Source of the DNA: Eledone cirrhosa | Taxonomy: Eukaryota | Assembly: GCA_964016885.1 (NCBI GenBank) | Contig: OZ024740.1 | Location: forward strand, 250,356,001 to 250,420,000 | Length of the DNA: 64,000 nt | Reading direction: 5' to 3' | Shown: one piece after another, positions 13,583 to 58,880 of the stretch | Numbering within the stretch: the stretch's first letter is position 1 | Layout: each line of letters begins with the position of its first letter | Made by a program: the position numbers and the translations under genes | Notes under the pieces: generated by a model | The model's database searches: none | What the model saw: only the letters and a program-made list of their open reading frames with translations | What the model was told of the DNA's origin: nothing

Positions 13583-13607
13583 CACCTTATTATTATTATT
13601 ATTATTA

Positions 13608-13989
13608 CAGTTGCATTTATCTTGCTTTATGTTCATACGAGTTATCACCAAGTCACAACCAGTGACCTCAAGAGACAACAAGGTCCGCCATGTTCAAGAA
13701 AGAACATACATACTCACACATGCATCTTTAGTGTTTAGACTTGTGATGTACTTATATTGACAGAATCTTCCTTAGTATATGGGCAGTTCCCATTAGTACT
13801 ATTTTTTGTATTTCTCCTATACGCGGGTTTCCTGGGATTTGCGATAAGTAATCATTAGACCCCTTAGGTATCATTCCCAGAGCGCCTACAACCACTGGTA
13901 TTGTTTTAGTTCTCAATTTCCACATTTTTCCAATTTCTATCTCCAGGTCCATATACTTGCTCAATTTTTCAAATGTTTTTATAGATACA
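13608..13989 (-). mobile_element. 3' fragment of a second R4/Dong-like family (family B)
   Basis: ORF 13752-13964 KYMDLEIE..PVVVGALG..GTAHILRKILSI is homologous to the RLE C-terminus; different 3' UTR; flanked by (TTA)n and (TTC)n(TTA)n. Confidence 0.8.
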
Positions 13990-14036: not shown

Positions 14037-17000
14037 GGCGACCTACATTGGAAATCGTATCAGCGTGAGCTCCGCAAAGGTTTGTTGTTTTCGTTTGTTT
14101 AAAATTGCCATTTATGGAAAATTTTTGTTGTTAACTATTTATAAGATCACAAAATTTGCTTTCGGAAAAGGGCACTCAAAAAGATTGGGGCCTTGAGCCC
14201 AAAATTTAAACTTTTATAATTATCAAACAAAAACATTTCTTTGAAAAATCATGGACGACTCACAGCCACACCTTCCTCACAAACTAACACCTCACACCGA
14301 CACCACCATTGTATATATTACTACGTTTGCCAACACTAAAAATATAAACAGTAGCAATAATTTAAATTTGTCTCATGCAGACATTCATTTCCCGCCATTA
14401 CCAATGTTGAAGGTGTTAAAGCCGCCACCCCCACCACCACCACAGCGACAACAGAAGCAAAAGAAAAAATAAATTAACTCGTGACATCGAAATGGATTCA
14501 CCCAGAATGGACTCTTCCACACTGATCACCACTGACGCCGCCACCACCACCACAATTGAAACTAAAAATAACAATAACAAAAATAACGATAACAACAACA
14601 GCAACAACAACAATGAGAATAAGAAAACCACCCTGTCTTTTTGCCAGAGCAGCAAAAAAGTGCGAAGCAATCCAGGTAACTCAGGAGGAATTAGATGAAG
14701 CCAAGAGAATGGTAAAGAAAGATGGGTACAGGGTCAGCCTCACCTCCCACCTAATAAAATTGAGTATCGGCACCTATGCACCGTGTCTTATCGGACGATT
14801 AACATAAAATCGCGCCGAGTCGAACGGGCATCCGAGTCCCAAATCCAAAAAGCTTTGAGACATGTGTGGGCAAAAAAACCTACATCAGACGTGGGCAGAA
14901 ATATGGAACCGTGGACGTGTTCTTTGGAACACCACAGGAGGCCAGAGAACACTCCATGGCCCCTTTAAGTGACGACTTCACACTCGTCCCAAGCTATTGT
15001 GGCCAGAGTCTAGTGAAGATCAGGGTGACCCACGTTCCACCGGCCATCGAAATTCCCTGGCTAATGGCTGCCGTCCTCGCCGGCATCGAGGCCAACACCA
15101 AGATAATCGAAATAGCGAAAGGAAAGCAGGAGAACTGGTCCGGATCTGGGGTGGAGCTCCTGATCCAAGGGGACCAAAAAAGCATTGAGGAGATCCCAGA
15201 GACAGCAGCCACCTCACCGTAATCGTCGAGGGCAGAAAGCCTAGGTGTGTCGTTTGTTGTGAAGGAACCCACCTAAGGGCTTTCTGCCCTCAGGCTGAAA
15301 GGTTGAGGCCACCTCTCTTACCCACCCCAGTGACTCAACCATCAACACCACCAGCAGCAGAAATGGCAGCAACAACAGAAGCAACTGTAGCAGCAACAAC
15401 CCCAGCAACAGTAGCAAAAACCAACACCACCACCACCCAACGCGCCAGAACTAGCACCAGCGCCTACACCATCCACCACGCCACAACCAAAATCAATGCC
15501 TGTGGAGGATTTTCCACTCCCCGACCTATCGCAACTGGAGACAGATTGTGACGACGAGGAGTGGGAAACGGTATCAGAAAAAAAAGAAAAAGAAAAAAAG
15601 AAAAAGAAACCAAAAAAGAAAAAATCCCCTTCCTTCCTCCTCCAAAAACAAAACACAGAGGGAAACAAATAAACTATCAAACAAAAAAGTTAGGACAGCT
15701 ATGCCACCATCCACACCAGCAGCATCAGCTCCATCACCACAAACACCAACACCATCACCATCATTAACTCCAAAACCACCATCACCAACACCACAAAATT
15801 ACCAAAAAGCGAAACAGAAACAAACCCACAACAAACGCAAACAAAACAAAACAACCAAAACGATACACACTAGACAGCATTAAATTTGAACAACAACCAA
15901 TTATTACACTATGTCCAACACAACACCAGCATCACAGAAAAAGACTACACAACAACCCAAAAGTTCACACCACCTCCACACATACAAATCACTCGCATCA
16001 CATAGAAAACGTACACGACACTAAAACAAAAATTACCCCAAAGACATCGGAGGCTTCCGAAAAGCACTCTCCAGGAGGATTTATAAGGACATCCTTCCGG
16101 AGGAGGCCACAAGCAGTGAAAAGGATGGAGAAACCGTCCTTCCTCTACGAGAAGTAAGGTAAGTGGTCTTTCCCACCTTTTCCACTGCATTTCAACATGA
16201 CCTCACTCAGAATAGGCAGCATAAATGTGCGTGGCTTGGGGTCGTCATAGAAGCAGGGCCACCTGCTCAACGACCTCAGGTCACTAAACATAGGTGTAGT
16301 GGCCATCAGCGAGACCAGAATCTCCAAAGTACGGGCCTTCGCACCGATCTTCGGCGACTACGATGTGTACGCATCTCTCAGCCGTCCTGGATCGGGGGAG
16401 GAGTTGCTGTGCTTTTTAGGAGAGGTTTGGATCTCGCCATACGGGCCATCTTCCTGGACCCAGAAGGTAAGTTGGTGGTGCTGGACGTGACCAGCGGAGA
16501 TGGGCAAGCTTTCAGGCTAGTGGCCATCTATGCCCCGACAGGAGCAGGGCGGCCTGATTTCTTCCGGCGTCTGGAACGGGGTGACTGGAACGGGATCTTA
16601 GATACACGCTGGAACTGTGTGACAGGTACCGATTGGATTTTCCGAATGTGCCAATGTGGACTTGGACAAACCGCATAGGGTCATCCAGATCATATCTAGA
16701 TAGAGTATTTTGTAGGGAAATAGATAGGTCTAGCATAGGCTGTCCACAATTCAAGATAGTCAGCTACACGGACCACAAATTCGTGATCTGTGTGCTTGAC
16801 TTAGATAGGCTTCATAGACGAGGACCCGGCTATTGGAAGCTAAACGCATCCTTACCAGCGCGCAAGGCCTACAGAGACTGGTTTAGCGAACTAGTTAAGC
16901 GGGCGTTGACGGGGGCCATCGTCAACAACAAGTGGTGGTTTGCTCTGAAAAGAGTAATTAGAATAGAGTCCATTAGGTTTAGTAAGGCTTTAGCAATAGA

Positions 17001-20200: not shown

Positions 20201-23200
20201 AATGTTGACAAAAGTGTAAGACATACAAGTCTGGGCAACAAAAAGTTTGTGAATTTAAGTTGTTGGAATTGCTATTATGTAACCTCTTTCATTGATAACA
20301 GGGCATGAAGCACCTGTATTTTCCCCGAGGAAGGGAGACCTTTTAATATTTGGGCCATCGTCCCAAATACTTTTGGGAAACATTTTTTATATAAACACTG
20401 CCCCTACTACCACCATTATGAAGAGTGTTACAACTACCATCACCACATACATCGTCACCGTCGACAATAACAACAACAGCAGTAGTAGCAGCAGCCTGGC
20501 AAGAGGAAGTGAAAGCTACAAAAACATTTTCCTACTTTATTGCCTTAACTACACAAAGTATCGGTCAAAACAAGAAAGAAAAAAAACCAACTATATTGCA
20601 AACACCACCACCACCACCACTACCACAACAACAGCAACAGGGACAAAGTGTAACAGAAACAAATAGGAATAACAACAACAACAGAGGCAACAGAGATGAT
20701 AAGGCCTCAAAAGCGACCATATCTTTCGCAAAGGCGGATAAAATCATGGAATGAGCTTATGACAATGAAGAGGAGATGAGGGAGGCTAAGCTGTTGGTGA
20801 AGATGAGCGGTCATACAGTCAGCCTCTCTCATCCACCCGACATCACGGAGAACAGACATCTTTGTATGGTCTCATACTGCCCAATTAATACGAAATCGCA
20901 CAAGGCAGCACGCGACGAAGTCCCAAAGACTATGGGCGCCGTGAGGGCACATAAAATATACATAGCCCAGGGGACAAAATATCATACTGTGAATGTTCTC
21001 TTTGCCACCTCTCAAGAAGCCAAGACATACTCAATCACACCACTCTGCTGCAAAGAGATCCCCATGGAGCCAACGTATTGTGGGGTTAGAATAACCCAAG
21101 TGCTGCCCTCAATAGCTATTTCTAAGCTTATTGGTGGCTGTCCTCGCCGACAATCCTGAACATGGTAAAAGTAAAGCAAGAAAACTGGACAGGATCAGTG
21201 ATGGAATTGCTGATAAAAAAAAAAACAAGAAAATATAGAGGCCATCCCTAATGTGATAAACCTCGACAGCGGCATCAACCTACTTCTGACCTTCGAGGAT
21301 AGAAAGCCAAGGTCCCTCATCTGTGGGGAGAAAATCCACCTAAAGGCCTGCCCAACACAAACATAGGCAGGGACGAAGCTCCCTCTCCTTCCCATACCAG
21401 ATCACATACTGGGAGCAACAAAGCCGGCTGCAGCCGGCCGCAGTCACAGCAAAAAAAAAAAGCAGTACTAGTATCAACAACGGCAACAACAAAAACGCAC
21501 CTCCACCACAAACTGCAACACCAATTCCTGTAAAAGATCTACCCCTCCTTGATGTCACACAAATGGACATGGATTGTGACGAAGATGAAGTGCGGAAAAC
21601 AATCAGGGAAAAAAAAGACCTCCCCTTCACCCTAAAAAAAAATCGTGAAACAAACAAGAAAAAACTCAAAACTTCAATGCCACCACCACCATCATCATCA
21701 TCATCTGCCCACTGCCATCACCACCAACATCATCACCATCATCATCTCCACCGTCATCACCCTCAACACCTCAAAAAACACCAACAACACCTCAAAAAAC
21801 ACCAACAACAACCCAAACAAAAACAAACCCACATCCGCAACAAGCTCAAATCCAACAAAATGATACAACTGTTATGCACTACACAGCAATAAACATGAAC
21901 AAAAAAATTACTTACCAACATAAAACACAATATTACAGAAAAAAATTACTTAACACCCCAAAAATTTGCATCACCCACACATAAAAATTACACAAATAAA
22001 TAATAAAAAAAAAACTCTTCTCAAGAAAATTTTCCCTGATTTAATTGGAGAATTTCGAGAAATCCCTCTCCACAAAAATATACAAAGACATCCTTGTGGA
22101 GAAGGCCACAACTAGCCAGACAGACGAAGCAACTGTTCCTCCACCAGAACACTAAGGGTAAATTCTCACTTGTTTCCTCCTTTTAAACATAGCCTTGCTC
22201 AGAACACGCAGTATAAATATACATGGTTTGGGGTTGCCTTGGAAGCAGGGTTACCTGTTCAATTACCTCAGGTCACTTAAGATACTTGTGGTGGCCATCA
22301 GTGAGACCAGAACCTCCGAGGTATGAGCCATCATGCCCATATTCAGCGGCTACAATATGTATGCATCTCCAAGCCATCTGAAATATGGAGGCGAAGTAGC
22401 TGTGTTGTTTCAAAGTGGACTGGAACTTGCAGCACAAGCCATTTTCTTAGACACAGAAGGTAGGTTGGTGGTGTTCAGCATGACCAGCAGTGACAGGCAC
22501 ACTTTCAGGCTAGTGGTTGTCTATATCCCGAGAGGAGCAGGGCAGCCTGATTTTTTCCGGAGCCTGGAAATGTTTCTAGCAACGTCTCACTCTTTAGTGT
22601 TAGTGGGTGATTGAAATGGGATCTTGGATGCACACTGACTATATGGGACTAACGGATAGGGGAGGATGGTGTAAAAGCCTTGCAAACCTGCTCAGACGCT
22701 TTCAACAGGTACTGACTGGATTTCCCAAATATGCCAATGTGGACATAAACAAACCACATTGGGTCATCCAGATCATATCTAGATAAGGTATTCTGTAGGG
22801 AAGTTGACAAGCCTAGCATAGACAGTCCACAATTTAAAGTAGACGAATACACAGACCATAAATCTGTGATGTTTGTAATAAATCTAGATAGGCTCCATAG
22901 GCAAGGACCCGGTTACTAGAAGGTGAACGCCACATTCCCAACACGCAATGCCTACAGAGACTGAATTAGAAAATTAGTTAAGCGGGTGTTGACAGGAACA
23001 ATCGTCAACAAGAAATGGTGGCATGCCCTGACAAGTGCGATTAGAGTGGAATCGAGAAGGTCTAGCAAAGCCCTAGCAATAAAAAAAAACTAGAGCAGAG
23101 GAAGAGCTAGTTATCAAAGGCATCGCAGCCGACATTCTTGTGCTGAGATTGGTCCTGGACAATCTTCTTCAATGATAAAGCACAAAGGCTGTATGGTTAG

Positions 23201-24894: not shown

Positions 24895-26715
24895 GTCAAA
24901 TACCAAGATAACATTGAGTTCAAGACAAGGGGCAGGCAATTTGGCACAATCTTGGTGCTGTTTAAGTCTGAAGCCCTTGCTCTGAAATGCTTAGTGGCCC
25001 CTAACATGGGCAGAAGGACAGTCAGGACCGCAGTCCAGAGATCACACCAGGACTGGACATGTGGTGGAACTGGGATGTGTGATATAGGAGGGTATGGATG
25101 CGTCACCCATTGAAGTTACAAAAACAACTGGTCTGTGGTTGATTTGGAGATTCTTCTCCAAATCAAACCAGAAGGCAGATCGCATCCACCTACAGGATGG
25201 GATGGCCATACAAGTGGTCACTGAGGGCAAAAGGCCGCACTGTTTCCTCTGCAGCAAAACCACACATTTGAAAGCCCCCAGCTCAAAAACACAGGGTGCT
25301 GCAAACTTTCATTGATGCCAATACCGGGGCGTGGACAACCAACCCAGCACCAACAGCACCGCCAGCACCATCAGTGCCAGCACTGACAGAACATCAGCAT
25401 CAAAATCAACCCAGGGGGAAAATGAGGAAAGCTCTCCCACTTCTCCCAAGGCAAATATACACATAAACACAGACAAATACTCACACACATGTAAACACAC
25501 TCCAACTCCCCCCTGACAAAGAGTCCCCAGACACTAATCACTCTTCATCTCCAAGTGAAGATGAGGTAGAACCCTCCCAAGAAAAAACAAAAAACGAACA
25601 AAAACAAAAATTCATTTTCACACACACCTACAATCACACAGAACATACAGCAAACACAGACACACCTACAACAAAACCAACACCACAACCATCAATAAAA
25701 ACACCCCCCCCCCCCACCAATAACAACACAGACAGAACTGCAACTCATGTTCCACAGAAGGAAACATACTCAGGCACTAACAACAACAGAAACACCCAAC
25801 TTCATGTTACTAAGAAGGGCAAACAAAAAACTTATGGCCCTTGTAACATGAAGTCAAGATATTGAGAATGTGGGGGAGATTTTAGGCACCTTCAAAGTAC
25901 CCCAAACATTGCTGATGCCAGTAAACACGTATAAAAACATTAAAGAGAGCTTCCCCAACAACATATGAAAGCCTCAAGTTGGCTTTTAAGGGGTTTCCCA
26001 AAGGAAACCTCACAAATCATGGAGGTTGAGCCACTTGACCTCTACAAACCCCAGGGAAGTAAGTAGACCTTTCCTCTCTCTTTTAGCCTACCAACATAGC
26101 CACCGTAAGAGTGGGATGTTTAAATGTTTGTAGCCTGGGGTCGTCCTGGAATTAGGGTCACTTGCTGAATGACCTCAGGTCACTAGATATGGATGCAGCT
26201 ACTGTCAGTGAGACCAGGATTTCCAACATGCATGCACTAGCCCTCATTTGATAGGGGAAGTGCAAACTTGTGTAATCCCGACCAGGTTCATATACGACAA
26301 CTCCCAGTTCATGCGATACATCATAAGTGTAAACTTGGCTTCAGTAGGGCTCTGATCAATTTAGTCCAATTGAAAGTTTTCGATAGGATTGACAATCGAT
26401 ACCTGGAGGCTGTCTTCAAGGCAACTGGATTCAGTCCCTTCTTCAGGGGCTGGATCGCTGCAATGTACAGCTTCGTCTGCTTGGTGGTCAAAGTTAATGA
26501 CTATCTTTCAAAATAGTTTCAGATCTCTCGATCAGTCCGTTAAGAGAACCCTCTCCTCCCTTCTGTATGTATTGACTCTCAAACCTTTACTGCAGAAGCT
26601 GGAGCTGTTACAGGGCATCCCGCTCGAACTGAGACATGGACAGGCTGTGTCAGCATATGAAGAGGACATCACAGTAATGGTGTCGAACACCTCAGAAATC
26701 AAGGTGGTCAGCACA
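24895..26715 (+). mobile_element. Decayed F2-like Tx1 fragment (ORF1, start of ORF2, deletion into RT)
   Basis: EGKRPHCFLCSKTTHL knuckle; junction at 26057-26100 like 38019-38063; RT piece like 39700-40170. Confidence 0.75.
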
Positions 26716-36804: not shown

Positions 36805-39800
36805 GGTAAAAGGACAGTGAAGGTACGCATTCCCAGCATCCCACCAGTAATGAACATATGGTGGCTGCTGGGATGCGTAATCGAGGAGGGGGACAGACAC
36901 TGCCCTCCTAGACATCAAAAGGACAGAGAGAGAGGACTGGTCCGGAATGGATTTGGAGATTCTTCTCCAAATGAAACCGGAGGATATGAATAACATCCCG
37001 GATTTTGCCGGCCTGCAGGATGGGACAACAATCCAACTAATGATTGACGGAAGAAGGCCACGCTGCTTCGTCTGCGGGGAAGCAACGCATCTTCAAGCCT
37101 TCTGCCCTCAGCGCAAAAATGCAGGGGGTCGCAAACTTCCTTTGTTGCCAACGCCAGTGTCAGCACGGAAAGCTACACCACCACCACCACCAAAAACAAC
37201 ATCAACAAAAACACGGACACCAACATCAAAAGCAGCCGGATCACCACCAACACCAAAACCAATCCAAGGAGAAAACGAGGAAAGCTCTCACACTCCCCCT
37301 ACCCCCCAAATTATACACATAGACAAAACAATAAACGCACACACAGACACAGAGACACTCACAGACACAGACCCTTTGTCTTCCAGCAGCGAAGATGAAG
37401 GAAAACCCAAAAGTGCAAAAAAACAGAGAAAACTCACAAAAAAAAAAGCCCCAACAAAACACAAAAACACACACAACAAAAAATACAGACACCACTAACG
37501 CAAACACTTCCCCAATAACATCATCACCAACAGCAACATCGACACCACCTCCACAATCCCCGAAACGCAAACAACCTAAACAAACACAAGTACAAATAAA
37601 CACACAAATACCTGAAATTGCAGACACCACACCTACAACAAACATAGACATACCCGAAACAACACCACCAAAACCATCGCCACCACCTTCACCAAAACGA
37701 AAACAAATAGAACCACACCAACAAAATGTTAAAAACTTCGTGCTTGTCAGAAGGGCCAACGATAAACTGATGGCCCTCTTAGCGCGAAGCGAGGACATTC
37801 AAACAGAGGGGGAGATTTTTGAAATGAGCACATTTTGCGTGCCAGAAGATTTGCTTCTGGTCCGAATGTCACTCAATTCCTTCAAAGAAATTCGAGAGAG
37901 CTTTCCTCAAGACGTGGGAAACCCGAATGTGAAACCCACATCAAGACTTTTAAAGGGGTTCCCAAAAGAAACCCCACCAACCATGGAGGTCGAACCACCC
38001 GACCTTCACAAGACCCGGGAGGTAAGTAAACCTTCCCTCTCTCTCTCTTAGCTTACCAATATGGCCATATTAAGAGTAGGAAGTTTAAATGTTCGCGGCC
38101 TGGGGTCACCCTGGAAGCAGGGTTGCCTGCTCAACGACCTCCGGTCGCTGGAAATGGATGTTATTGCCGTAAGCGAGACCAGAATTTCCGACACGCGAGC
38201 ACTAGCCCCCATTTTCGACGACTATCAGATCTTCGCATCTGTTAGCAGGCCGGGAATGGGGAGTGGGGTGGCAGTGCTGTTTAGGAAAGGACTGGATCTC
38301 GAGGTAAGGTCGATCTTCCGGTGACGGACGGTAAGTTGGTGGTCTTGGATGTGAGCAGTAGCGAAGGTGGTGCCTTTAGACTGCTGGCCGTCTACGCCGC
38401 TACAGGGGCCGGACGACCTGACTTCTTTAGGCGCCTGGAGACCTTTCTGGGTACGTCTCGCCCTTTACTGTTAGCGGGGGACTGGAATGGCATCTTAGAC
38501 GCACGCTGGGATTGTGTGGGAGTAGCCGATAGGAGCGGGGAGTGCAAAAGCCTCAAGCACCTACTCAGCCAGTTCCAACTGTCTGACAGGTATCGACTAG
38601 ATTTCCCCAATGTGCCAGTGTGGACATGGACCAACCGAATGGGGTCATCTAGATCGTATATAGACAGGATCTTCATTAGGAAAATAGATAGAAATAGTGT
38701 GGGCTGTCCACTTTTTAAAACGGTCGCCTATTCAGATCACAAATTTGTGATCTGTACGGTCGACCTAAATAAAACGCGTAGGTTAGGACCGGGTTACTGG
38801 AAGCTGAACATGTCATTTCCGGCACGTAAGGCTTACAGGGACCGAGTCAACAATTTAGTTAAGCAAAAGTTGACAGGAGGGATCATCAACAACAGATGGT
38901 GGGGGGCTCTCAAAAGAGAGATTAGAGTAACTTCGATAGAGTTCAGCATAGAAGTAGCGTTAGAGAAAAATAGAAAGGAGGGGGAGCTGGTAGATAAGTT
39001 AGACGAGGCTATTTGTAGTGGCATCGCAACTGACGTGCTAGCGGCGAGAATGGCATTAGACCATTTCTTCAATGCCAAACACGAAGGTTGCATTGTCAGA
39101 GCTAAGGCGCGTGCGCTGAGAAACGAGGAAACTAAAGCTGTTCGATGGGCCCGCGTGGCGGAGGCGCAGCGTGGTAATAAAATCACAATTCGGTCTTTGG
39201 CGGACCGAGACGGACACGAGATAAGCGATTCCAAGCGGATGTGTGAGGCCTTTCGCCAGCACTTTGCTCGGTTGTTCAGGGAGAGTGGCGAGTCAGAGAG
39301 AGTAGCGGATTTCAGTCCCTACCTTGACGGCTTGCCGCGCATCTCGACGGTCGACGCTGAGCGCTGCGAAAGGCCGATTACTTCAGCCGAAATTCAGGAC
39401 GCCCTTGTCGGCTGCATGAGGCGCAAGTCACCCGGTTTGGATGGCCTGCCCTACGAGCTTTACGTAAATATGCCAGACTTGTTCTCCGAACTCCTCGAAG
39501 CACTCTACTGCAACTGGCAGCAGAATGGGAGTATTCCCAGTTCTGGGAGCAGGGGAGTGGTGACGCTGATAAGGAAAGACGAGAACAAGATGGATACATT
39601 AGACAACTTCAGGCCCATAACTCTGCTCAACACAGAGTTTAAGATTTTGGCCAAGGTGTTAGCAAAGAGATTGGCGCTTGTCGTCGAGGATTTGGTTGGG
39701 GAGGCGCAAACTTGCGCAATCCCAGCCAGGTCCATACACGACAATCTCCACCTCATGCGATACATCATAGAGAGGGTAGGGTGTAAACCTGGCTTCGGTG

Positions 39801-41889: not shown

Positions 41890-44800
41890 GGTTGGTGAAG
41901 CCACGCTTCTTATCGCCTCCAGTCTTTTTCAACGTTTTACCTCTTTTTCAACCGTTCTAAACCTTTTATTCAAGTTTTAAATTTGATAAAAGTTTAGAAG
42001 AAGTGACCCACCTAATACAGGGGTTCACTAGTAAATAATACGGCACCCCTTTACGGGGCGTCGTATTCGTATTTGTGTAAAAGTACTTTTTGAAAAATTT
42101 CAACATGGATAACACAAAAAAGAGAGAGAGCGCTGTCAGACAACACAGAGAGAGGGAGACTTTATCAGCATGTCAACAAGACAGCGTTCCAGCGGAGGTA
42201 AATATAAACGAAAATATTACAAAGGAAAAAAAGATTGTTACAGATTTAAAATTAACAAATATTTCTAACACAAACAACACCAACAATAACACCAACAACA
42301 TCACCAACAACAACACCAAAAATAACAGCGGTAAGGTCGAGAACGACAATAACAAAAATAACAGCGGTAAGGTCGAGAACGACAATAACAATGACAATAA
42401 CAACAGCCACAACAACAATAATAGTAGGAACAGTATCAACAAAAACAACAATAATAACAACAGCCACAATAACAGTAACAGCAGCAACAGTATCAACGAA
42501 AACAACACCAACAACTGTAACAGCGAAAAGAACAACAATGACACCGATACCTGTAATAGCGACCTCAGCACCACCAGTAAGACCAGTAGCGGCAGCAATA
42601 GTGGTGCTGCTGAAAAAGGGACCACTTCTTTTGCAGGTGTCCCCCGAAATATCGAAACAGTGTTAGTCACAGAGGAGGAGATGGCAGTCGCAAGGGCCAT
42701 GGTGACAAGAAGCGCAAATAGAGTTTCCCTGAAACCTCCACCCGATTTTTTCAAGGACCAGCAGCTACGAACGGTGAATTACCGCACCGTAAGCAAAATC
42801 TCACATCGAGTGGAGAGAGCCACGGAGGCTCAAATCCCAAAGGCCTTGGGGTGCGTCTGGGCACGCAAAACCCACATCACCCGAGGCAGAAAGTACGCCA
42901 CAGTAGACGTACTTTTCACCACCTCCCAGGAAGCAAAGTCTCACTCTTTGGAAACCCTAAAGAGTGAGGAGTTAGTCTTGGTGCTCTCCTACTGCGGGCA
43001 GAAAATTGTGAGGGTCAAAGTGACCCAGGTCCCACCGACGTGCCCATACCTTGGCTGGCCGCGTCTGTCCTTGCTGGAATTGAGAACAGGGCGACCATGC
43101 TGCAAGTAGAAAAAATAGGGAGAGAGAACTGGTCAGGTATAGGCATGCAAATGCTTATACAAACTGACCAGGAAAGTATCGAGGCTATCCCCGATATCAT
43201 AGACTTTGAGGAAGGACTCCAACTCCCTATAAGTGTAGAAGGAAGACGGCCAAAATGTTATCTCTGTGGGTCGAAAGGTCACCTCAGGGCCTTTTCCCCG
43301 CAGAAGACACCGAAGAGGGCCCCTCTCCTTCCAATACCTGGTCGGCTGCTACCAAGAGCAGGACAGACAACAAACGAAGAAGCCCCTTCCACGGTGAGTA
43401 GGACGGCAACGTCCGTAGCACCCGTACCAAGGCCACGGATAACTAAAGCAGCATCATCAGTAGCGGCAACACCAATAGCTACATTTGAAATAGCTACACC
43501 AGCAACAACATTGCCAAAGAGGGCTCCACTACCACCACCAACAGCCATGGAGCACATACCCCTCCCAGACGCCACGGAATCCGACATGGAGTTTGAGGCG
43601 GGAGTGACGTGGCAAACAGTCTGCCACAAAAAACAAAAAAACAAAAAACCCTTAGATTCACCCTCCAAAAGCGAAAGCATACAAAGAGGGGTAAAGGCAG
43701 CAAGGAAACTTGCAGCAACACCACCACAAACACCAACAACGCAAACACAAGACACACACATCAAACAGCAACAAGAAGAAAACGGCAACAAAATCACCCC
43801 TCCCTCCAAAAAGTACACAGCCATAAACATAGCAAAAAAAAAACTCATAAAATATATAAAGCAGCGCACAGACATCACGGAAAAAAATTACTACACCCCA
43901 CCAACACCAAGAACTCTCCCGTCAAACATAAGCATCATCGAAATCTTATTAGAACAATACAAACCTTTAAAACAAAAATTCCCCAACGCAGTTGGAGATT
44001 TCAGAGGAACGGTTACCAAGTGGATATACACTGACATCCTCTTGGAAACACCCATGACCAGCGAAAGGGACGGTTCTACTGTCCCTTCACCACATGAACA
44101 AGGTAAGTGACTCTTTCTCATTTGCCCCGTTTCTCATCCAACATGGCTGTACTCAGAATAGGAAGTATAAATGCACGTGGCCTGGGGTCATCTTGGAAGC
44201 AGGGTCACCTGCTCAATGACCTCAGGTCACTAAACATAGATGTGGTGGCAATCAGTGAAACCAGAATCTCCGAGCACGGGCCTTCGCACCGATCTTCGGC
44301 GGCTACGATGTATACGCATCTCCCAGCCGTCCAGGATCGGGGGGAGGGATTACCGTCCTTTTTCGGAGAGGCTTGGATCTCGCGATACGGGCCATCTTCC
44401 TGGACCCAGAAGGTAAGTCGGTGGTGCTGGACGTGACCGGCAGCGAAGGCAATGCTTTCAGGCTAGTAGCCGTCTACGCCCCAACAGGGGCAGGACGGCC
44501 AGATTTCTTCAGACGTCTAGAGACCTTTCTTGGAACGTCCCGCTCTTTAGTGTTAGTGGGTGACTGGAACGGTATCTTGGATGCACGCTGGGATCGTGTG
44601 GGGCTAGTGGATAGGGGAGGAGGGTGCAAGAGCCTCACCAACCTGCTCAGACGTTTTGAACTGTCTGACAGGTATCGACTGGATCACCCGAATGTGCCAA
44701 TGTGGACATGGACAAACCGCATCGGGTCATCCAGATCGTATCTAGATAGGGTATTCTGCAGGGAACTAGATAAGGCTAGTGTAAGTTGTCCACAATTTAA

Positions 44801-47126: not shown

Positions 47127-50100
47127 GGCGACCTACGTAGTAAATCGTATTATCGTGAGCTCCGCAAAGGTTTGTTATTTTCAGTTGTTTAAAATTGCCA
47201 TTATTGGAAAATCTTTATTGTTAACTGTATATAAGTGAACATACATTGATTTCTGAAAACGACACTCAAAAAGATTGGGGCCTTGAGCCCAAAATTTAAA
47301 CTTTTATATTTATCAAACAAAAACATTTCTTTGAAAAATCATGGACGACTCACAGCCACACCTTCCTCACAAACTAACACCTCACACCGACACCACCATT
47401 GTAAATATTACTACGTTTGCCAACACTAAATATATAAGTAGTAGCAATATTTTAAATTTGTGTCATGCAGACATTCATTTCCCGCCATTACCAATGACTG
47501 CAGGTGTTGAAGCCGCCACACCCACCACCACCACAGCGACAACAGAAACAAAAGAAAAAATAAATTATCTCGTGACATCGAAATTAATTCAACCAAAATG
47601 AACTCTTCCACACCGAACACCACTGACGCCACCACCACCACAACTAAAACTAAAATTAACAATAACAAAAATAACGATAACAACAACAGCAACAATGAAA
47701 TTAAGAAAACACCCTTGTCTTTTGCCAGAGTAGTAAAAAAATGCGAAGCATTCCAGGTAACTCAAGAGGAATTAGAAGAAGCCAAAAAAATGGTAAAGAA
47801 AGATGGCTACAGGGTCAGGCCCCCCCCTCCCTAATAAAATGGAGCATCGGCACCTATGCACCGTGTCTTATCGGACGATTAACATAAAATCGCGCCTAGT
47901 GGAACAGGCATCCGAGTCCCAAATCCAAAAAGCTTTGGCAAAAAAAACCCACATCAGACGTGGGCAGAAATATGGAACCGTGGACGTGTTCTTTGGAACA
48001 CCACAGGAGGCCAGAGAAAACTCCATGGCCCCATTAAGCAGTGACGACTTCACACTCATCCCAAGCTATTGTGGCCAGAGACTCGTGAAATCAGGGTGAC
48101 CCACCTTCCACCGACCATCGAAATTCCCTGGCTAATGGCTGCCGTCCACGCCGGCATCGAAGCCAACACCAAGATAATTGAAATAGCGAAAGAAAAGCAG
48201 GAGAACTGGTCTGGATCTGAGATGGAGCTCCTGATCCAAGCGGACAAAAAAAGCATTGAGGAGATCCCAGAGGTAATAGACCTCACTGACGGCAGCCGCC
48301 TCACCGTAATCGTCGAGGGCAGAAGGCCTAGGTGTGTCGTTTGTGGTGAAGGAACCCACCTAAGGGCTTTCTGCCCTCAAGCTAAAAGGTTGAGGCCACC
48401 TCTCTTACCGAACCACAGTGACTCAACCATCAACACCACCAGCAGCAGAAATGGCAGCAACAACTGTAGCAGCAACAACAGAAGCAACTGTAACAGCAAC
48501 AACCCCAGCAACAGTAGCAAAACCAACACCACCACCACCCAACGCACCAGAACTAGCACCAACGCCTACACCATCCACCACGCCACAACCAAAACCAACG
48601 CCTGTGGAGGATTTTCCACTCCCCAACCTATCGCAACTGGAGACAGATTGTGACGACGAGGAGTGGGAAACGGTATCAGAAAAAAAGAAAAAAAGAAAAA
48701 AGAAAAAAGAAAAAAGAAGAAAGAAAAAAGAAAAAATCCCCTTCCTTCCCCCTCCAAAAACAAAATACAGAGGGAAACAAATAAACTATCAAATAAAAAA
48801 GTTAGGACAGCTATGCCACCATCCACACCAGCATCACCAACCCCATCACCATCATTAACCCCAATACCACCATCACCAATACCACAAAAGTCACCAAAAA
48901 GCGAAACAGAAACAAACCCACAACAAACGCAAACAAAACAAAACAACCAAAACGATACAGACTACACAGCAATAAATTTGAACAACAACCAATTATTACA
49001 CTACATGCAACACAACACCAGCATCACAGAAAAAGACTACACAACAACCCAAAAGTTCACACCACCTCCACACATACAAATCACTCGCATCACACAGAAA
49101 ACGTACACAACACTAAAACAAAAATTCCCCAAAGACGAGAATTAAGGTAAGTGGTCTTTCTCATCTTTTCCACTCCATTTCAACATGAAATCACTCAGAA
49201 TAGGCAGCATAAATGCGCGTGGCTTGGGGTCGTCATGGAAGCAGGGCCACCTGCTCAACGACCTCAGGTCACTAAACATAGATGTAGTGGCCATCAGCGA
49301 GACCAGAATCTCCGAAGCACGGGCCTTCTCACCGATCTTCGACGGCTACGATGTGTACGCATCTCCCAGCCGTCCTGGATCGGGGGGTGGAGTTGCTGTG
49401 CTTTTTCGGAGAGTTTTGGATCTCGCCATACGGGCCATCTTCCTGGATCCAGAGGGTAAGTTGGTGGTGCTGGACGTGACCAGCGGAGACGGGCAAGCTT
49501 TCAGGCTAGTGGCCGTCTATGCCCCGACAGAAGCAGGGCTGCCTGATTTCTTCCGGCGTCTGGAAACCTTTCTTGGAACGTCCAGCTCTTTAGTGTTAGT
49601 GGGCGACTGGAACGGTATCTTAGATGCACGCGGGGACTATGTGGGATTAGCGGATAGGGGAGGAGGGTGCAAGAGACTCACCAACCTGCTCAAGCGTTTT
49701 GAACTGTCTGACAGGTCCCGAATGTGCCAATGTGGACTCGGACAAATCGCATAGGGTCATCCAGATCATATCTAGATAGAGTATTTTGTAGGGAAATAGA
49801 TAGGTCAAGCATAGGCTGTCCACAATTCAAGATAGTCAGCTACACGGACCACAAATTCGTGATCTGTGTGCTTGACTTAGATAGGTTTCATAGACGAGGA
49901 CCCGGCTACTGGAAGCTAAACCCGTCCTTACCAGAGCGCAAGGCCTACGCTAATCCGGATTAGCGAACTAGTTAAGCGGGCGTTGACGGGGGCCATCGAC
50001 AACAAGTGGTGGTTTGTTCTGAAAAGAGCAATTAGAATAGAGTCCATTAGGTTTAGTAAGGCTTTAGCAATAGAGAAAAATAGAGCAGAGGGAGAACTAG

Positions 50101-52857: not shown

Positions 52858-53066
52858 GGCGACCTACGTAGGAAATCGTATTATCGTGAGCTCCGCAAAG
52901 GTTTGTTATTTCCGTTTGTTTAAAAATTGCCATTTATGGAAAATTTTATTGTAAACTGTTTATAAGCACACATACATTGTTTTCCGAAAAGGACACCCAA
53001 AAAGATTGGGGCCTTGTGCCCAAAATTTTAACTTTTATTATTATCCAAAAATTTCTTTGAAAAAGA

Positions 53067-55062
53067 ATGGCTAATTCCCCTCTGCACGAAGCAGCTGAAA
53101 GCCTTCCTCACAAAATAACACCTCACACCGACACCACCATTGTAAATGTTACTACGTTTGCCAACACAAAAAAAAATATAAACAGTAGCAATATTTTTAA
53201 TTTGTCTCAGGCAGACATTCATTTCCCGCCATTACCAATGACTGCAGGTGTTAAACCCTCCACCACCACCACCACCGCGACAACCACCACCACCACCACC
53301 ACCACCGCGACAACAGAAACAAAAGAAGAAAAAAATAAATTAACTCGTGACGTCGAAATGAAATCAAGCAAAATGGACTCTTCCCCACCAAAGACGACTG
53401 ACGTCACAACCACCACAACTGAAAATAAAATTAATATTAACGATAGCAACAACAACAACAATGACATTATAAAACCGACCCTCAGTTTCGGCATCGTAGC
53501 AAAACAATTCGAAGCGTTCACGGTAACCCAAGAAGATTTAGAAAATGCCAAACAAATGGTAAAGAAAGATGGGTACAGGGTCAGCCTCACCCCCCCCCCC
53601 CCCACCTAATAAAATGGAGCATCGGCGCCTGTGCACCGTGTCGTATAGAACAATAAATGTAAAATCGCGCCGAGTGGAACGGGCATCCGAGTCCCAAATC
53701 CAAAAAGCTTTGGGACATGTGTGGGCAAGAAAAACCCACATCAGACGTGGGCAAAAGTATGGAACCGTGGATGTGTTCTTTGAAACACCAGAGGAGGCTA
53801 GAGAACACTCCATGGCCCCATTAAAAAGTGACGACCTCACACTCGTCCCAAGCTATTGTGGCCAGAGACTCGTAAAGATCAGGGTGACCCACGTTCCACC
53901 AGCCATCGAAATTCCCTGGCTAATAGCGGCTGTCCTCACCGGCATCGAAGCCAACACGAAAATAATAGCAGTAGCAAAAGAAAAGCAGGAAAACTGGTCC
54001 GGATCTGGGATGGAGCTCCTGATCCAAGCGGACCTAAAAAGCATTGAGGAGATCCCAGAGGTAATAGACCTCACTGACGGCAGCCACCTCACGGTAATTG
54101 TCGAGGGCAGAAGACCTAGGTGTGTCGTTTGTGGTGAAGGAACCCACCTAAGGGCTTTCTGCCCTCAGGCTAAAAGGTTGAGGCCACCTCTCCTACCCAC
54201 CCCAGTGACAAAACCATCAACACCACCAGTAGCAGAGATGGCAGCAACAACTGTAGCAGCAACAACAGAAGCAACTATAACAGCAACAACCCCAGCAACA
54301 GTAGCAAAACCAACACCACTACCACCACCAGCAAAACCAACACCACCACCACCCAACGCTTCAGAACTAGCACCAGCGCCTACACCATCCACCACACCAC
54401 AACCAAAACTAACGGCTGTGGAGGATTTTCCACTCCCCGGCCTATCACAACTGGAGACAGATTGTGACGACGAGGAGTGGGAAACGATATCCGGAAAAAA
54501 AAAAAGAAACCAAAAAAGAAAAAATTCTCTTCCTTCCCCCTCCAAAAACAAAATACAGAGGGAAACAAATAAACTAAGAAACAAAAAAGTTAGGACAGAT
54601 ATGCCACCATCCACACCAGCATCACCAACCCCATCAACCCAAACACCAACACCATCACCATCATCATCCCCAGCACCACCATCACCTACACCACAAAAGT
54701 CACCAAAAAGCGAAACAGAAACAAACCCACAACAAACGCAAACAAAACAAAACAACCAAAACGATACACACTACACAGCATTAAATTTGAACAACAAGCA
54801 ATTATTACACTACATCCAACACAACACCAGCATCACAGAAAAAGACTACACAACAACCCCAAAATTCACACCACCTCCACACATACAAATCACTCGCATC
54901 ACACAGAAAACGTACATGACACTAAAACAAAAATTCCCCAAAGACATCGGAGACTTCCGACAAGCACTCTCCAGGAGGATTTATAAGGACATCCTTCCTG
55001 AGGAGGCCACAAGCAGTGAAAAGGATGGAAAAGCCGTCCTTCCCCTACGAGAAGTAAGGTAA
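53067..55062 (+). CDS. ORF1 nucleic-acid-binding protein (RRM-like region, CCHC knuckle, Pro/Thr-rich linker, basic patch); one frame break at the C run 53590-53603
   Basis: ORFs 53067-53609 and 53569-55062; CVVCGEGTHLRAFC is CX2CX4HX4C; WETISGKKKRNQKRK. Confidence 0.82.
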
Positions 55063-55096
55063 GTGGTCTTTCCCATCTTTTCCACTCCTTTTCAAC

Positions 55097-58000
55097 ATGA
55101 CCTCACTCAGAATAGGCAGCATAAATGCGCGTGGCTTGGGGTCGTCATGGAAGCAGGGCCACCTGCTCAACGACCTCAGGTCACTAAACATAGATGTAGT
55201 GGCCATCAGCGAGACCAGAATCTCCGAAGCACAGGCTTTCGCACCGATCTTCGGCGGCTACGATGTGTTCGCATCTCCCAGCCGTCCGGGATCGGGGGGA
55301 GGAGTTGCTGTGCTTTTTCGGAGAGGTTTGGATCTTGCCATACGGGCCATCTTCCTGGACCCAGAAGGTAAGTTGGTGGTGCTGGACGTGACCAGCGGAG
55401 ACGGGCAAGCTTTCAGGTTAGTGGCCGTCTATGCCCCGACAGGAGCAGGGCGGCCTGATTTCTTCTGGCGTCTGGAGACCTTTCTTGGAACGTCCCGCTC
55501 TTTAGTGTTAGTGGGCGACTGGAACGGGATCTTAGATGCACGCTGGGATTGTGTGGGATTAGTGGATAGGGAAGGAGGGTGCAAGAGTCTCACCAACCTG
55601 CTCAGACGTTTTGAACTGTTTGACAGGTACCGAATGGATTTCCCGAATGTACCAATGTGGACTTGGACAAATCGCATAGGGTCATCCAGATCATATCTAG
55701 ATAGAGTATTTTGTAGGGAAATAGATAGGTCTAGCATAGGCTGTCCACAATTCAAGATAGTCAGCTACACGGACCACAAATTCGTGATCTGTGTGCTTGA
55801 CTTAGATAGGCTTCATAGACGAGGACCCGGCTACTGGAAGCTAAACGCGTCCTTACCAGCGCGCAAGGCCTACAGAGACCGGATTAGCGAACTAGTTAAG
55901 CGGGCGTTGACGGGGGCCATCGTCAACAACAAGTGGTGGTTTGCTCTGAAAAGAGCAATTAGAATAGAGTCCATTAGGTTTAGTAAGACTTTAGCAATAG
56001 AGAAAAATAGAGCAGAGGGAGAATTAGTTAGAAAATTAGACGAGGCGCTTAGCAAAGGCATCGCGACCGACGTACTTGCGGCGAAATTGGCCCCTGACCA
56101 ATTCTTCAATGCAAAGCACGAAGGCTGCGTTGTCAGAGCTAGGGTGCGTGCTCTCAGACACGAGGGGACGAAAGCCGTTGAATGGGCCCGAGTGGCGGAG
56201 GCGCGTCGTGGCAACAAAGCCACGATCCGGTCTTTGGTAGACCACGACGGGCGCATGCTACTCGATCCCGGGCAAATGTGTGAAGCTTTTCAGCGACACT
56301 TCGCTCAACTGTTTGGGGGCAGTGGCGGGCCGGATCGAGGGATGGACTTTAGTGTCTACCTCGACGGACTGCCGCGGCTTTCGGCCACTGAGGCGGAGTG
56401 TTGCGAAAAGCCGATAACAACCGCTGAAGTATGGGATGCAATGACTAGTTGCACAAGGGGCAAATCGCCTGGTTTGGATGGTCTGCCCTATGAACTTTAC
56501 GTACAAATGCCAAACTTGTTCGGAGGCCTCTTGGCGGACGTCTACTGCAACTGGCAACAGAACGGGAGAATTCCCAGCTCTGTGAGCCGAGGAGCGGTGG
56601 CGCTGCTGAGAAAGGATCCGAACAAGGGGGATAACATAGATAATTTTAGGCCCATAACTCTGCTAAACACAGAGTTCAAGATTTTGGCCAAGGTGCTAGC
56701 AAAGAGGTTGGCGCTTGTCGTTGGTGGTCTGGTGGGAGAGGCACAGACATGCGCCATTCCCGACAGATCCATCCACGACAACCTCCACCTCATGCGATAC
56801 ATCGTAGAGAGGGTAGCTAGGGAACCTGGCACGGGTGGGTCTTTGATCAATTTAGATCAGTCGAAAGCCTTCGATAGGGTCGACCATCGTTACCTAGCGG
56901 CAGTCCTGAGGGCGGCTGGCTTTGGGCCCGTCTTCAGAGGCTGGATCGCTGCCATGCACAGCGACATCTGCTCTGTAGTGAGAGTGAACGGTCACCTTTC
57001 GGAACCGTTCAACATCATGCGCTCGGTCCGCCAAGGATGTCCCCTCTCGTCCCTATTGTACGTATTGACTCTCGAGCCATTACTGCACAAACTGGAGACG
57101 TTGAGGGGGGTCCCGCGCGAACTAGGATGCGGAAGATCCGTGTCAGCATATGCCGACGATGTCACCGTAGTGGTGTCGAACGCCAAACACATCGAGGCGA
57201 TCGGCACTACACTAAGAGAATACGAAGCGGTGACAGGAGCAATGATCAACCAGGAAAAGTCAGTGGGCCTGCAGCTCGGCACCTGGAGAGGCAGGTCCAT
57301 GCCGTCCAACAGCGTCGTCGGGCGCTGGACGGACGGACCGGTTAAATTGCTAGGGGTCTGGTTCGGTCCAGACCTCCAGACGGACAAAAACTGGGACGAG
57401 GTGACGAGCAGGGTGGCTTCTCTCACCCAGAAATGGGCCGAGAGGAAGCTATCCCTAAAAGGTCAAGCGGAGGTGGCGAATGCGTACATCGCATCCGTCA
57501 TCTACTACCGCCTGACCGTCGTACCTTGTCCTAAGCCCCGCCTGACTGCGCTGGAGCGTTTGCTCTTTCGCTTCTTGTGGAAGGGACGCGCTCCGATGGT
57601 CAGGCGGTCCATCTGCTGTCAACACCCGCTACGTGGAGGGCTGGGCATGCCGTGGCTGATGATGCGCAGACACGCGCTCAGGCTACGACATCTCCACCTC
57701 TTCCTCGACGGTGATCAGGTGTGGTCGCCGTTTGCAAGACACGTTTTTCCCCAGCTCGTCTCCTTGACGGAGCTGCAGTCCTGGGTCAAGCGAAGACCGA
57801 GAGGGAGCGCTTGGAGACTGGAATGTCTTCAGGCGCTCACAGCCCTCGACCAATCGGGCAATGTGATCGGTGGAAACTCCACCTTGGCGTTCTATAGGGG
57901 ATTAGTGGAGAGGAAGAGCGACGACGTACTTGGAGAAACTCTAGGCGTCGACGAAAATCAACTAGCCAATCTCTTCGGAAGGACTTTCGGGCCGGGGCCT

Positions 58001-58516
58001 ATGGACAACTTCCAGAAATCCCTGGCCTGGCAGTGCTACCGAGGAGCTTTGCCAGTTCGGGATAAACTCTACAGGCATGGAGGTGCCGTTAGCCGGGCAT
58101 GTCCGAGATGCGCGCAGGGCGACGAAACCATCCTGCACGCACTCGTCCAGTGTCCGAGCATTGCTGACTTGTGGGTTTATGTCGAACACCTGCTGTCACG
58201 TGTAGGACGGATCCAGCTATCAGCTGAGTCCATCGTGAGGATTGCCCCACCCCCTTCCTTTAGCCTGGAAGGGCAGGCAGTTTTTATCTGTCTGGTGGCC
58301 ATGGCGAAAGAGATAGTATGGTGGACACGTTTGAAAGGGCTGAAGACGAGCACTTACCTCTTCGGTGATGCCCTGATTAACTTTTTCAAATTTCATTTGA
58401 AAAGGAAAATCAGGGTAGAGAGGGAAGTGCTCTCTTCCCAGCATTTTCTTGAAAGATGGGTGAGAGAAGCAAGTATGGCCCGAATGAATGGGCCTTCTCT
58501 GAGTATGTGTCTGTAA
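55097..58516 (+). CDS. ORF2: APE endonuclease, reverse transcriptase and C-terminal Cys/His finger (1139 aa, uninterrupted)
   Basis: SINARGL, ISET, VYAP, GDWN, YLDRVF, YTDH; GKSPGLDG, RPITLLN, DQSKAFD, QGCPLS, YADD; CPRC..ETILHALVQC; typical L1/Tx1 layout. Confidence 0.96.
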   Translation: MTSLRIGSINARGLGSSWKQGHLLNDLRSLNIDVVAISETRISEAQAFAPIFGGYDVFASPSRPGSGGGVAVLFRRGLDLAIRAIFLDPEGKLVVLDVTSGDGQAFRLVAVYAPTGAGRPDFFWRLETFLGTSRSLVLVGDWNGILDARWDCVGLVDREGGCKSLTNLLRRFELFDRYRMDFPNVPMWTWTNRIGSSRSYLDRVFCREIDRSSIGCPQFKIVSYTDHKFVICVLDLDRLHRRGPGYWKLNASLPARKAYRDRISELVKRALTGAIVNNKWWFALKRAIRIESIRFSKTLAIEKNRAEGELVRKLDEALSKGIATDVLAAKLAPDQFFNAKHEGCVVRARVRALRHEGTKAVEWARVAEARRGNKATIRSLVDHDGRMLLDPGQMCEAFQRHFAQLFGGSGGPDRGMDFSVYLDGLPRLSATEAECCEKPITTAEVWDAMTSCTRGKSPGLDGLPYELYVQMPNLFGGLLADVYCNWQQNGRIPSSVSRGAVALLRKDPNKGDNIDNFRPITLLNTEFKILAKVLAKRLALVVGGLVGEAQTCAIPDRSIHDNLHLMRYIVERVAREPGTGGSLINLDQSKAFDRVDHRYLAAVLRAAGFGPVFRGWIAAMHSDICSVVRVNGHLSEPFNIMRSVRQGCPLSSLLYVLTLEPLLHKLETLRGVPRELGCGRSVSAYADDVTVVVSNAKHIEAIGTTLREYEAVTGAMINQEKSVGLQLGTWRGRSMPSNSVVGRWTDGPVKLLGVWFGPDLQTDKNWDEVTSRVASLTQKWAERKLSLKGQAEVANAYIASVIYYRLTVVPCPKPRLTALERLLFRFLWKGRAPMVRRSICCQHPLRGGLGMPWLMMRRHALRLRHLHLFLDGDQVWSPFARHVFPQLVSLTELQSWVKRRPRGSAWRLECLQALTALDQSGNVIGGNSTLAFYRGLVERKSDDVLGETLGVDENQLANLFGRTFGPGPMDNFQKSLAWQCYRGALPVRDKLYRHGGAVSRACPRCAQGDETILHALVQCPSIADLWVYVEHLLSRVGRIQLSAESIVRIAPPPSFSLEGQAVFICLVAMAKEIVWWTRLKGLKTSTYLFGDALINFFKFHLKRKIRVEREVLSSQHFLERWVREASMARMNGPSLSMCL

Positions 58517-58786
58517 ATTAAAGGTGGAAAACTGGGAGAGGGCACTTGCCCTGGTGGTCAGGGCCACTGTGGTCTTTTAATGGGCTTTCTCCACAAATGT
58601 CCCTTGGAAGTCTCCCCCCTATTGGGGAATTTTTCTTTGTTATTTTATTTCAACCTCTGTTTTTTTACACGCAGAAATGCCCATTTGTACCGTCCTGTAT
58701 TGTCCTGTACTGTCCTTAATGTCTACTTTATGTGAACCCTTGTGGTTAATAAAGAAAACATTATTATTATTATTATTATTATTATT

Positions 58787-58880
58787 AAATCCCGCCGAGG
58801 TTAACTTTGCCTTTCATCCTTACGGGGTCGATAAAATAAAGTACCAGTAATGTACTGGTTAATTGCTGGCCTTGTGCCTA
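58787..58880 (+). mobile_element. SINE fragment
   Basis: Core through GGCCTTGTGCC. Confidence 0.8.

Follow-up and report, generated by a model that had tools for sequence, protein, structure and literature searches.

A 5' splice-site motif without a conserved partner at the ORF1 stop of Tx1-type LINEs in Eledone cirrhosa

Why would a retrotransposon that has to be copied from unspliced RNA keep a near-perfect 5' splice site at the boundary between its two genes? The question is raised by a 64,000-nucleotide (nt) stretch of the Eledone cirrhosa genome (assembly GCA_964016885.1, contig OZ024740.1, positions 250,356,001 to 250,420,000, forward strand; hereafter the window, with positions counted from its first letter). 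Here, F1, a young retrotransposon without long terminal repeats (LTRs) in a 3.0-Gb host genome, carries the motif AAG/GTAAGT (the slash marks the splice boundary) across the stop codon of its first open reading frame (ORF1). F1 is a long interspersed nuclear element (LINE) and, because LINE RNA must stay unspliced for copying, such a donor should be purged. A preliminary description of the window read the motif as the start of a mini-intron whose removal would fuse ORF1 and ORF2 in frame, with a mere U1-binding site as the fallback. The evidence favors the fallback as a putative site: with a probability of roughly one half, the motif belongs to a set of conserved, unpaired U1-type sites on unspliced LINE RNA, with ORF2 made by termination and re-initiation. 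The features at issue in the youngest F1 copy are as follows.

53067..55062, + strand: ORF1 of F1, ATG at 53067, stop TAA at 55060-62; this copy shifts frame in a poly-C run near 53590
55056..55064, + strand: conserved 5' splice-site motif AAG/GTAAGT (GT at 55059), which covers the stop codon of ORF1
55067..55093, + strand: C/T-rich tract, anchored to the donor/stop side and not to an AG
55092..55100, + strand: ORF2 start context, ATG 55097 in a conserved (C/T)CAAC-ATG
55097..58516, + strand: ORF2 of F1, encoding APE endonuclease, reverse transcriptase and zf-RVT, open throughout
55108..55110, + strand: proposed acceptor CAG; the AG supplies positions 1 and 2 of a conserved Arg codon in the first strand of the endonuclease, and the phase is not conserved across families

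Junctions of this kind were sampled with two degenerate patterns (4,034 and 671 matches), part of the first 100 listed matches of each was fetched, and the sampled junctions were sorted by hand into 26 families and subfamilies, each represented by one natural copy. The main branches are 65-73% identical in ORF2 DNA. A donor, defined as a 9-mer with at least 7 of 9 matches to the U1 consensus, is present at the end of ORF1 in 25 of the 26 representatives, which are not independent because the families share ancestry; elsewhere on the sense strand such sites occur at ~0.7 per kb (104 sites in 146.9 kb). Apart from the +1 and +2 columns, which are fixed by site selection, the motif is nearly invariant at -2 (A, 25/26), -1 (G, 26/26), +3 (purine, 26/26), +5 (G, 24/26) and +6 (T, 25/26), compared with 0.35-0.85 in the flanking columns. 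The forms found are GTAAGT, GTGAGT, GTAGGT and GTAATT, so that the variation falls where real donors vary. The donor is found in each of the three phases (0, 1 and 2), and by our own count its phase changed five times on the tree. Because the motif is kept in three phases, and outside the coding sequence in a relative described below, selection acts on the nucleotides: a U1-complementary motif is conserved independently of coding. A matching acceptor is not conserved across families. The pyrimidine tract starts 7-10 nt after the donor (mean 87% pyrimidine) and is followed by the conserved ORF2 start context CCAACATG (CCAAC-ATG-G-like), with the ATG at the aligned position in 24 of the 26 representatives and an A at -3 likewise in 24. 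Every genomic copy examined retains the unit.

The donor is also present in a relative with 41% ORF2 identity, which a scan of a genome collection located as tandem arrays in contigs of one assembly. In 41 of the 43 loci examined, the junction reads GAG TAA G/GTAAGT, followed by 7 nt and the ATG; since the 41 loci all come from this assembly, they count as one lineage. The remaining two (L302, L304) represent a different family of the same subclade that lacks the donor. The whole donor of the relative follows the ORF1 stop and a C/T tract is missing, which makes a fusion impossible there. The relative, the motif-less family and the families of the present genome form one strongly supported subclade in a quick tree computed without bootstrap. 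Farther out, among 27 L1/Tx1 loci, L111 alone shows a donor-like motif where ORF1 ends. By blastp, the ORF1 of the relative does not align to that of F1, so the homology of the junctions rests on ORF2 and on position. The contigs with the arrays (L271-L315) are part of a bacterial metagenome-assembled genome and consist of tandem eukaryotic LINE arrays, likely host contamination of the assembly; we infer that they are animal-derived. In L275 and related loci, a GTRAGT is located 14 nt after the ORF2 stop (33 of 41 rows), with an acceptor-like site ~250 nt downstream, and a 3' untranslated region (UTR) intron is possible in this relative.

A second donor motif recurs near the 5' end of these elements. 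A perfect GTRAGT was found in the first 100 nt of 11 of 14 5'UTRs (two of the 5' ends being assumed, and five UTR pairs showing some similarity), where 1.2 are expected from shuffles; the controls gave one on the antisense strand and none in the next 100 nt. It typically lies ~20-90 nt from the 5' end and is followed by T-rich sequence (L183, L192, L213, L255, L270 and others), in UTRs that are mostly unalignable, and the relative also has a 5'UTR GTRAGT. No spliced genomic copies derived from 5'UTR donors were seen. The 5'UTR of F1 itself carries weaker sites.

52858..53066, + strand: 5'UTR of the youngest F1 copy, beginning after an (ATT)n run; weak donor-like sites at ~52886 (GTGAGC) and ~52901 (AAG/GTTTGT)

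Two further uses of the 5' region were considered and rejected. A splice from the 5'UTR donor to an acceptor before the ORF2 ATG, yielding an ORF2-only RNA, has left 0 copies in Bp1, and in F1, F3, A and D the first AG comes after the ATG. The candidate acceptor upstream of ORF1, as for an exon or a back-splice, falls in a hairpin loop of the 5'UTR, and A, C, F1, F2 and F3 lack an AG there. All families have a conserved hairpin 50-60 nt before the ORF1 ATG (~52990-53030 in the window); its core is G/C-rich, its loop measures 4-5 nt, and its sequence differs between families. We also observe a common 5'UTR on different ORF2 families (L193 and L255; L096 and L184/L189), which suggests swapping of 5' ends.

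The fusion proposed in the preliminary description was built on F1, and there its layout was verified in full: the GT at 55059, the tract, the ATG at 55097 and the first AG ending at 55110 (CTCAG) are all in place, GT..AG ends with a strong donor are present, and removal of the 52 nt joins ORF1 and ORF2 in frame as ..E-V-R-I-G-S-I-N-A-R-G-L. The identical 52-nt unit recurs at 16159 and 49147, and the F4 (22158-22202), F2 (38022-38051) and F3 (44103-44156) units are also present. The best 40 matches to the F1 junction query are all 100% identical over 221 nt. The other junctions of the window are the following.

16156..16210, + strand: F1 junction, decayed copy
22155..22202, + strand: F4 junction, decayed; GGG/GTAAAT, with a stop just upstream
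26056..26086, + strand: F2-like junction, decayed; phase 1 at the donor against phase 0 at the first AG, out of frame
38019..38051, + strand: F2a junction; ORF1 stays open across the donor and stops at a TAG that lies in the ORF2 frame; in-frame unit of 30 nt
44100..44156, + strand: F3 junction; phase 1 at the donor against phase 2 at the first AG, out of frame throughout the family
49144..49198, + strand: F1 junction, decayed copy

That divergent families keep this design in frame, as had been claimed, was not confirmed, with F3, the F2-like copy, F2b, F2c and F2d all out of frame. The F2-like unit exists but is shifted one base to the left (26059-26086) and joins phase 1 to phase 0, whereas the 30-nt unit of F2 is indeed in frame but only in one subfamily (also L085 and L086), its sisters F2b, F2c and F2d being out of frame at the first AG. 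The idea that the F3 copy had lost a base does not hold either, since F3 is out of frame as a family (454 copies), including L196 with a 728-codon open ORF1 in phase 1. Across the 24 representatives with an assigned phase, the first AG is in frame in 12 (in one of these through a copy-specific AG), the first YAG in 8, and some AG before the conserved Asn of the endonuclease in 19, but an intron that is both in frame and at least 50 nt long is available in only 6; D, E, E2, E3 and F5 have no in-frame AG before the Asn. Outside these 24, I and K (phase 2) are in frame at the Arg codon by inspection. In the eight families where a long open ORF1 fixes the phase, F1, A and H are in frame, whereas F3, F2c, Bp1, D and F5 are out of frame; F2c and F5 include copies with both ORFs open, D includes copies with each open, and the open ORF2 of D and F5 copies spans 1,166-1,172 codons. 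The sister families B1 and Bp1 have one common acceptor and opposite donor phases, and by a hand count ~44 of the first 100 B junction rows listed are out of frame. The in-frame joins mostly rely on the AG within the conserved Arg codon, and this AG matches the frame of any ORF1 that terminates as AGG-stop. Thus, the donor and acceptor phases are not conserved across families, which goes against the fusion.

The genomic copies point in the same direction. LINE proteins preferentially copy their own RNA, as established for L1 (PMC5860796), so a working fusion RNA should leave spliced genomic copies. Counting with exact-anchor patterns, which miss copies with altered anchors on both sides, gave 0 spliced junctions against 1,083 unspliced ones in F1, 1,163 in B, 254 in A and 454 in F3, or 0 of 2,954 for the four families pooled (upper 95% bound ~0.1%), compared with ~2% of full-length copies that are spliced in human L1 in the account of the same source. 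The exon end of F1 followed by anything else was found at 4 and 9 places (exons starting with GT being outside this test), all point variants except one 346-nt deletion. This deletion (L220) starts at the donor and was considered as a splice product; it ends in GG rather than AG, and the similarity of GGTAAG and GGCAAG points to microhomology. The F3 exon end joined to other sequence was found at 11 places, with the tract retained in all, and that of D/E at 27 places, with the tract retained in 26 and one joined to a satellite; in B, no retrocopy spliced from the ORF1-end donor was found. At the protein level, no fused ORF1-ORF2 protein appeared among 15 database hits or in a search for longer proteins, which was a weak search; an endonuclease-like motif is absent from 150 ORF1 relatives; and nothing was found in the viral contigs searched. 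Contigs assembled from four runs of unknown kind are evidence neither way: there is no joint of 55058 to 55111 among the 15 joints listed (295 others being unlisted), and one X6 contig spans 55019-56803 with the unit in place.

With no acceptor kept and no spliced copy found, the donor is likely to be a docking site for U1 rather than one end of a fusion intron. The motifs at the ORF1 end and in the 5'UTR might recruit U1 to the otherwise intron-less 6-kb transcript, and the recruited U1 would help RNA polymerase II to reach the poly(A) site of the element itself. The donor might be kept unspliced by the short distance to the nearby AGs (28-61 nt) and possibly by a local hairpin. TIA-1-type proteins have a role in U1 loading, and the C/T tract may aid this step in a TIA-1-like manner; alternatively, it may shield the ORF1 stop from nonsense-mediated decay in a PTB-like manner. 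ORF2 would be translated by termination at the ORF1 stop and subsequent re-initiation at its own start codon. U1 binding and antitermination are proposed here by extension from mammalian cells, where an unspliced 5' splice site blocks attenuation by Restrictor (PMC11741429), and re-initiation from L1 and SART1, where ORF2 is described as being made by termination-re-initiation (PMC5972666). In U1-dependent antitermination (telescripting), as here, a 5' splice site would act through U1 without being spliced; as described in the former source, however, this activity was demonstrated at promoter-proximal sites in mammals, whereas the LINE site is 2 kb inside the transcript and in another host.

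Several observations weigh against this interpretation. F1, F3 and C have no perfect 5'UTR GTRAGT, and the lack in F1 concerns the very family in which the junction was noticed. F5 has ATA instead of ATG at the ORF2 start, with the first in-frame ATG beyond the Asn, and the motif-less family of L302 and L304 falls inside the subclade. According to one report on human cells, RNA that combines a 5' splice site with a poly(A) junction is targeted for decay in the nucleus (10.1101/2024.07.23.604837), an effect that would be detrimental to the element. Protection from HUSH is described as independent of the 5' splice site and as not conferred by short introns (PMC8770142), which makes a HUSH-protection route unlikely. 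Finally, the conserved donor in the 5'UTR of human L1 has been explained by an overlapping RUNX3 site (PMC5860796), a case in which a donor look-alike persists for another reason. With regard to F5, these elements (L251, L255; also L221-L232) are young with both ORFs open, the ATA overlaps the ORF1 stop (AAA-TAG) and the ORF2 frame extends over ~64 nt of ORF1; as options for ORF2 expression in this family, we suggest re-initiation on a non-AUG codon or slippage by -1 at the stop.

The alternatives differ in what they make of the missing acceptor. A long-range splice from the donor, for which the ORF2 stop, the 3'UTR or the flanking DNA could provide the acceptor, would remove ORF2 and produce an ORF1-only mRNA, or silence ORF2 in some tissues; we regard this as unlikely but plausible. 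It requires no phase match, in keeping with the data, and the relative's donor after the stop would leave ORF1 complete whatever the acceptor. Copying of a transcript that lacks ORF2 would depend on proteins supplied in trans, so that missing copies weigh less. CTGTAG is the sequence at most ORF2 stops, and in many families a G comes next; acceptor-like 3'UTR sites are present in F1, F6 and the relative; and at one locus (L318 4016, G000:C5:21848353) an ORF1 fragment of family D breaks off precisely at the donor and continues into a 21-bp satellite immediately past an AG. This join is equally explained by 2-nt microhomology, the satellite array being >24 kb; moreover, no acceptor is conserved in all families, the ORF2 of F1 ends in TAA, and the searches in B, F3, F1 and D/E described above, with the stated limit for F1, yielded no such retrocopy. 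A 3'UTR acceptor as a conserved feature was rejected, being confined to F1 and F6.

58517..58787, + strand: 3'UTR of F1; acceptor-like site near 58674, AATAAA near 58748, (ATT)n tail 58760-58787

The precedent for a splice of this kind is the subgenomic Gag RNA of the plant Ty1/Copia element EVD (PMC5580714), where a splice signal near the boundary of the structural and catalytic ORFs could likewise set their ratio; as described there, EVD is an LTR element with a demonstrated intron and spliced RNA, whereas the LINE donor has no conserved acceptor and is known from genomic sequence. The stronger version, in which excision of ORF2 amounts to a retrovirus- or Copia-like two-RNA strategy and the 5'UTR donor belongs to the same splicing-based control, appears rather unlikely. 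It is doubtful, and a little less credible again, that the motif is kept for translation or for protein or RNA structure (a stop context, a re-initiation hairpin or a factor site) and only resembles a donor. Its location, never more than a few codons from the ORF1 stop, would fit, as would the RUNX3 precedent in L1 (PMC5860796) and a hairpin, predicted in most families, that pairs the -1/+1 GG with the tract (mean pairing probability 0.97-0.98; folding z = -2.4 for the F1 junction). The stop, however, comes before, inside or after the motif depending on the lineage, the variation at +3, +4 and -3 follows the donor consensus, the relative has no tract and the 5'UTR motif is not near a stop. A co-evolved hairpin that hides the donor was rejected, with cognate arms pairing no better than arms from other clades (p ~0.32). 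A fusion through a spliced 28-61-nt intron, setting the ORF1:ORF2 ratio through a polyprotein (for the context of intron length, see PMC13644364), is highly improbable. To its credit, the F1 join is in frame and keeps residues that align to the first strand of the L1 endonuclease, in-frame AGs are frequent and the B families have a textbook-looking acceptor, but the varying phase, as in B1/Bp1 and in five of the eight phase-fixed families, the 0 of 2,954 intron-less copies and the relative's donor behind the stop leave the mini-intron unsupported and the fusion as a conserved design largely refuted.

What these LINEs share with known systems is partial. Human L1 has a conserved, rarely used donor, G98U99, in its 5'UTR, and its spliced RNAs leave genomic copies known as spliced integrated retrotransposed elements (SpIREs); in the cited account (PMC5860796), that donor overlaps the RUNX3 site and gives rise to the ~2% spliced full-length copies, whereas the motif described here is near-perfect at the ORF1 stop and no spliced copy was found. 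The RSE of Rous sarcoma virus, which acts with PTBP1 (PMC4764554), is likewise a CU-rich sequence just past the stop of an upstream ORF in unspliced retroelement RNA, but it is described as ~400 nt long with many clusters, in contrast to the 15-45 nt of the present tract, which is missing in the relative. We found no account of any Tx1-type LINE that conserves a donor where ORF1 stops in full-text searches, a scope that largely leaves subscription papers and repeat-database entries outside. What is new is the conserved unpaired donor and not the LINE, nor a new route to a LINE polyprotein: the motif at the ORF1 stop has survived five frame changes and ~59% protein divergence, and its second instance recurs in the 5'UTRs. 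If U1 is recruited without splicing, an intron-less selfish RNA could pass as pre-mRNA, and the young, intact families would offer a small natural test system.

The element itself is a Tx1-type LINE of the ordinary kind. It combines an upstream ORF1, a poly(A) signal and a simple-repeat tail with the absence of LTRs, and its ORF2 has the APE endonuclease, reverse transcriptase and C-terminal zinc motif typical of the L1 superfamily and the Tx1 clade. A putative placement of the reverse transcriptase inside the Tx1 clade is suggested by the sole named protein relative, 'Transposon TX1 149 kDa protein' (32%), but the quick tree, made without a reference panel, leaves the base open. Two ORFs, the domain order of ORF2, microsatellite tails and head-to-tail arrays are shared with the clade at large, whereas the donor at the ORF1 stop is confined to one subclade. 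A second AAG/GTAAGT, inside the endonuclease, was considered as a general feature and rejected, being present in one branch only.

55365..55373, + strand: second AAG/GTAAGT, inside the endonuclease (D-P-E-G-K), in the F1/F2/F3 branch only

A second predicted hairpin is located just upstream of the ORF1-end donor, within the final 45 nt of ORF1, in F2, D, E, G and F3 (for example L213, L192 and L182), and its paired bases apparently vary. In the window and genome-wide, the F1/F2/F3 branch lies in and terminates with (ATT)n and the B/D/F5/H/I branch with (ATCT)n. Copies are arranged head-to-tail in arrays with ~5.9 kb spacing and, among the matches listed, those of family A cluster towards the ends of chromosomes and on the small ones. 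The window also contains another element with a reverse transcriptase, on the minus strand at 11362-13626 and ~32900-33800, which is ~24% identical to the F1 ORF2.

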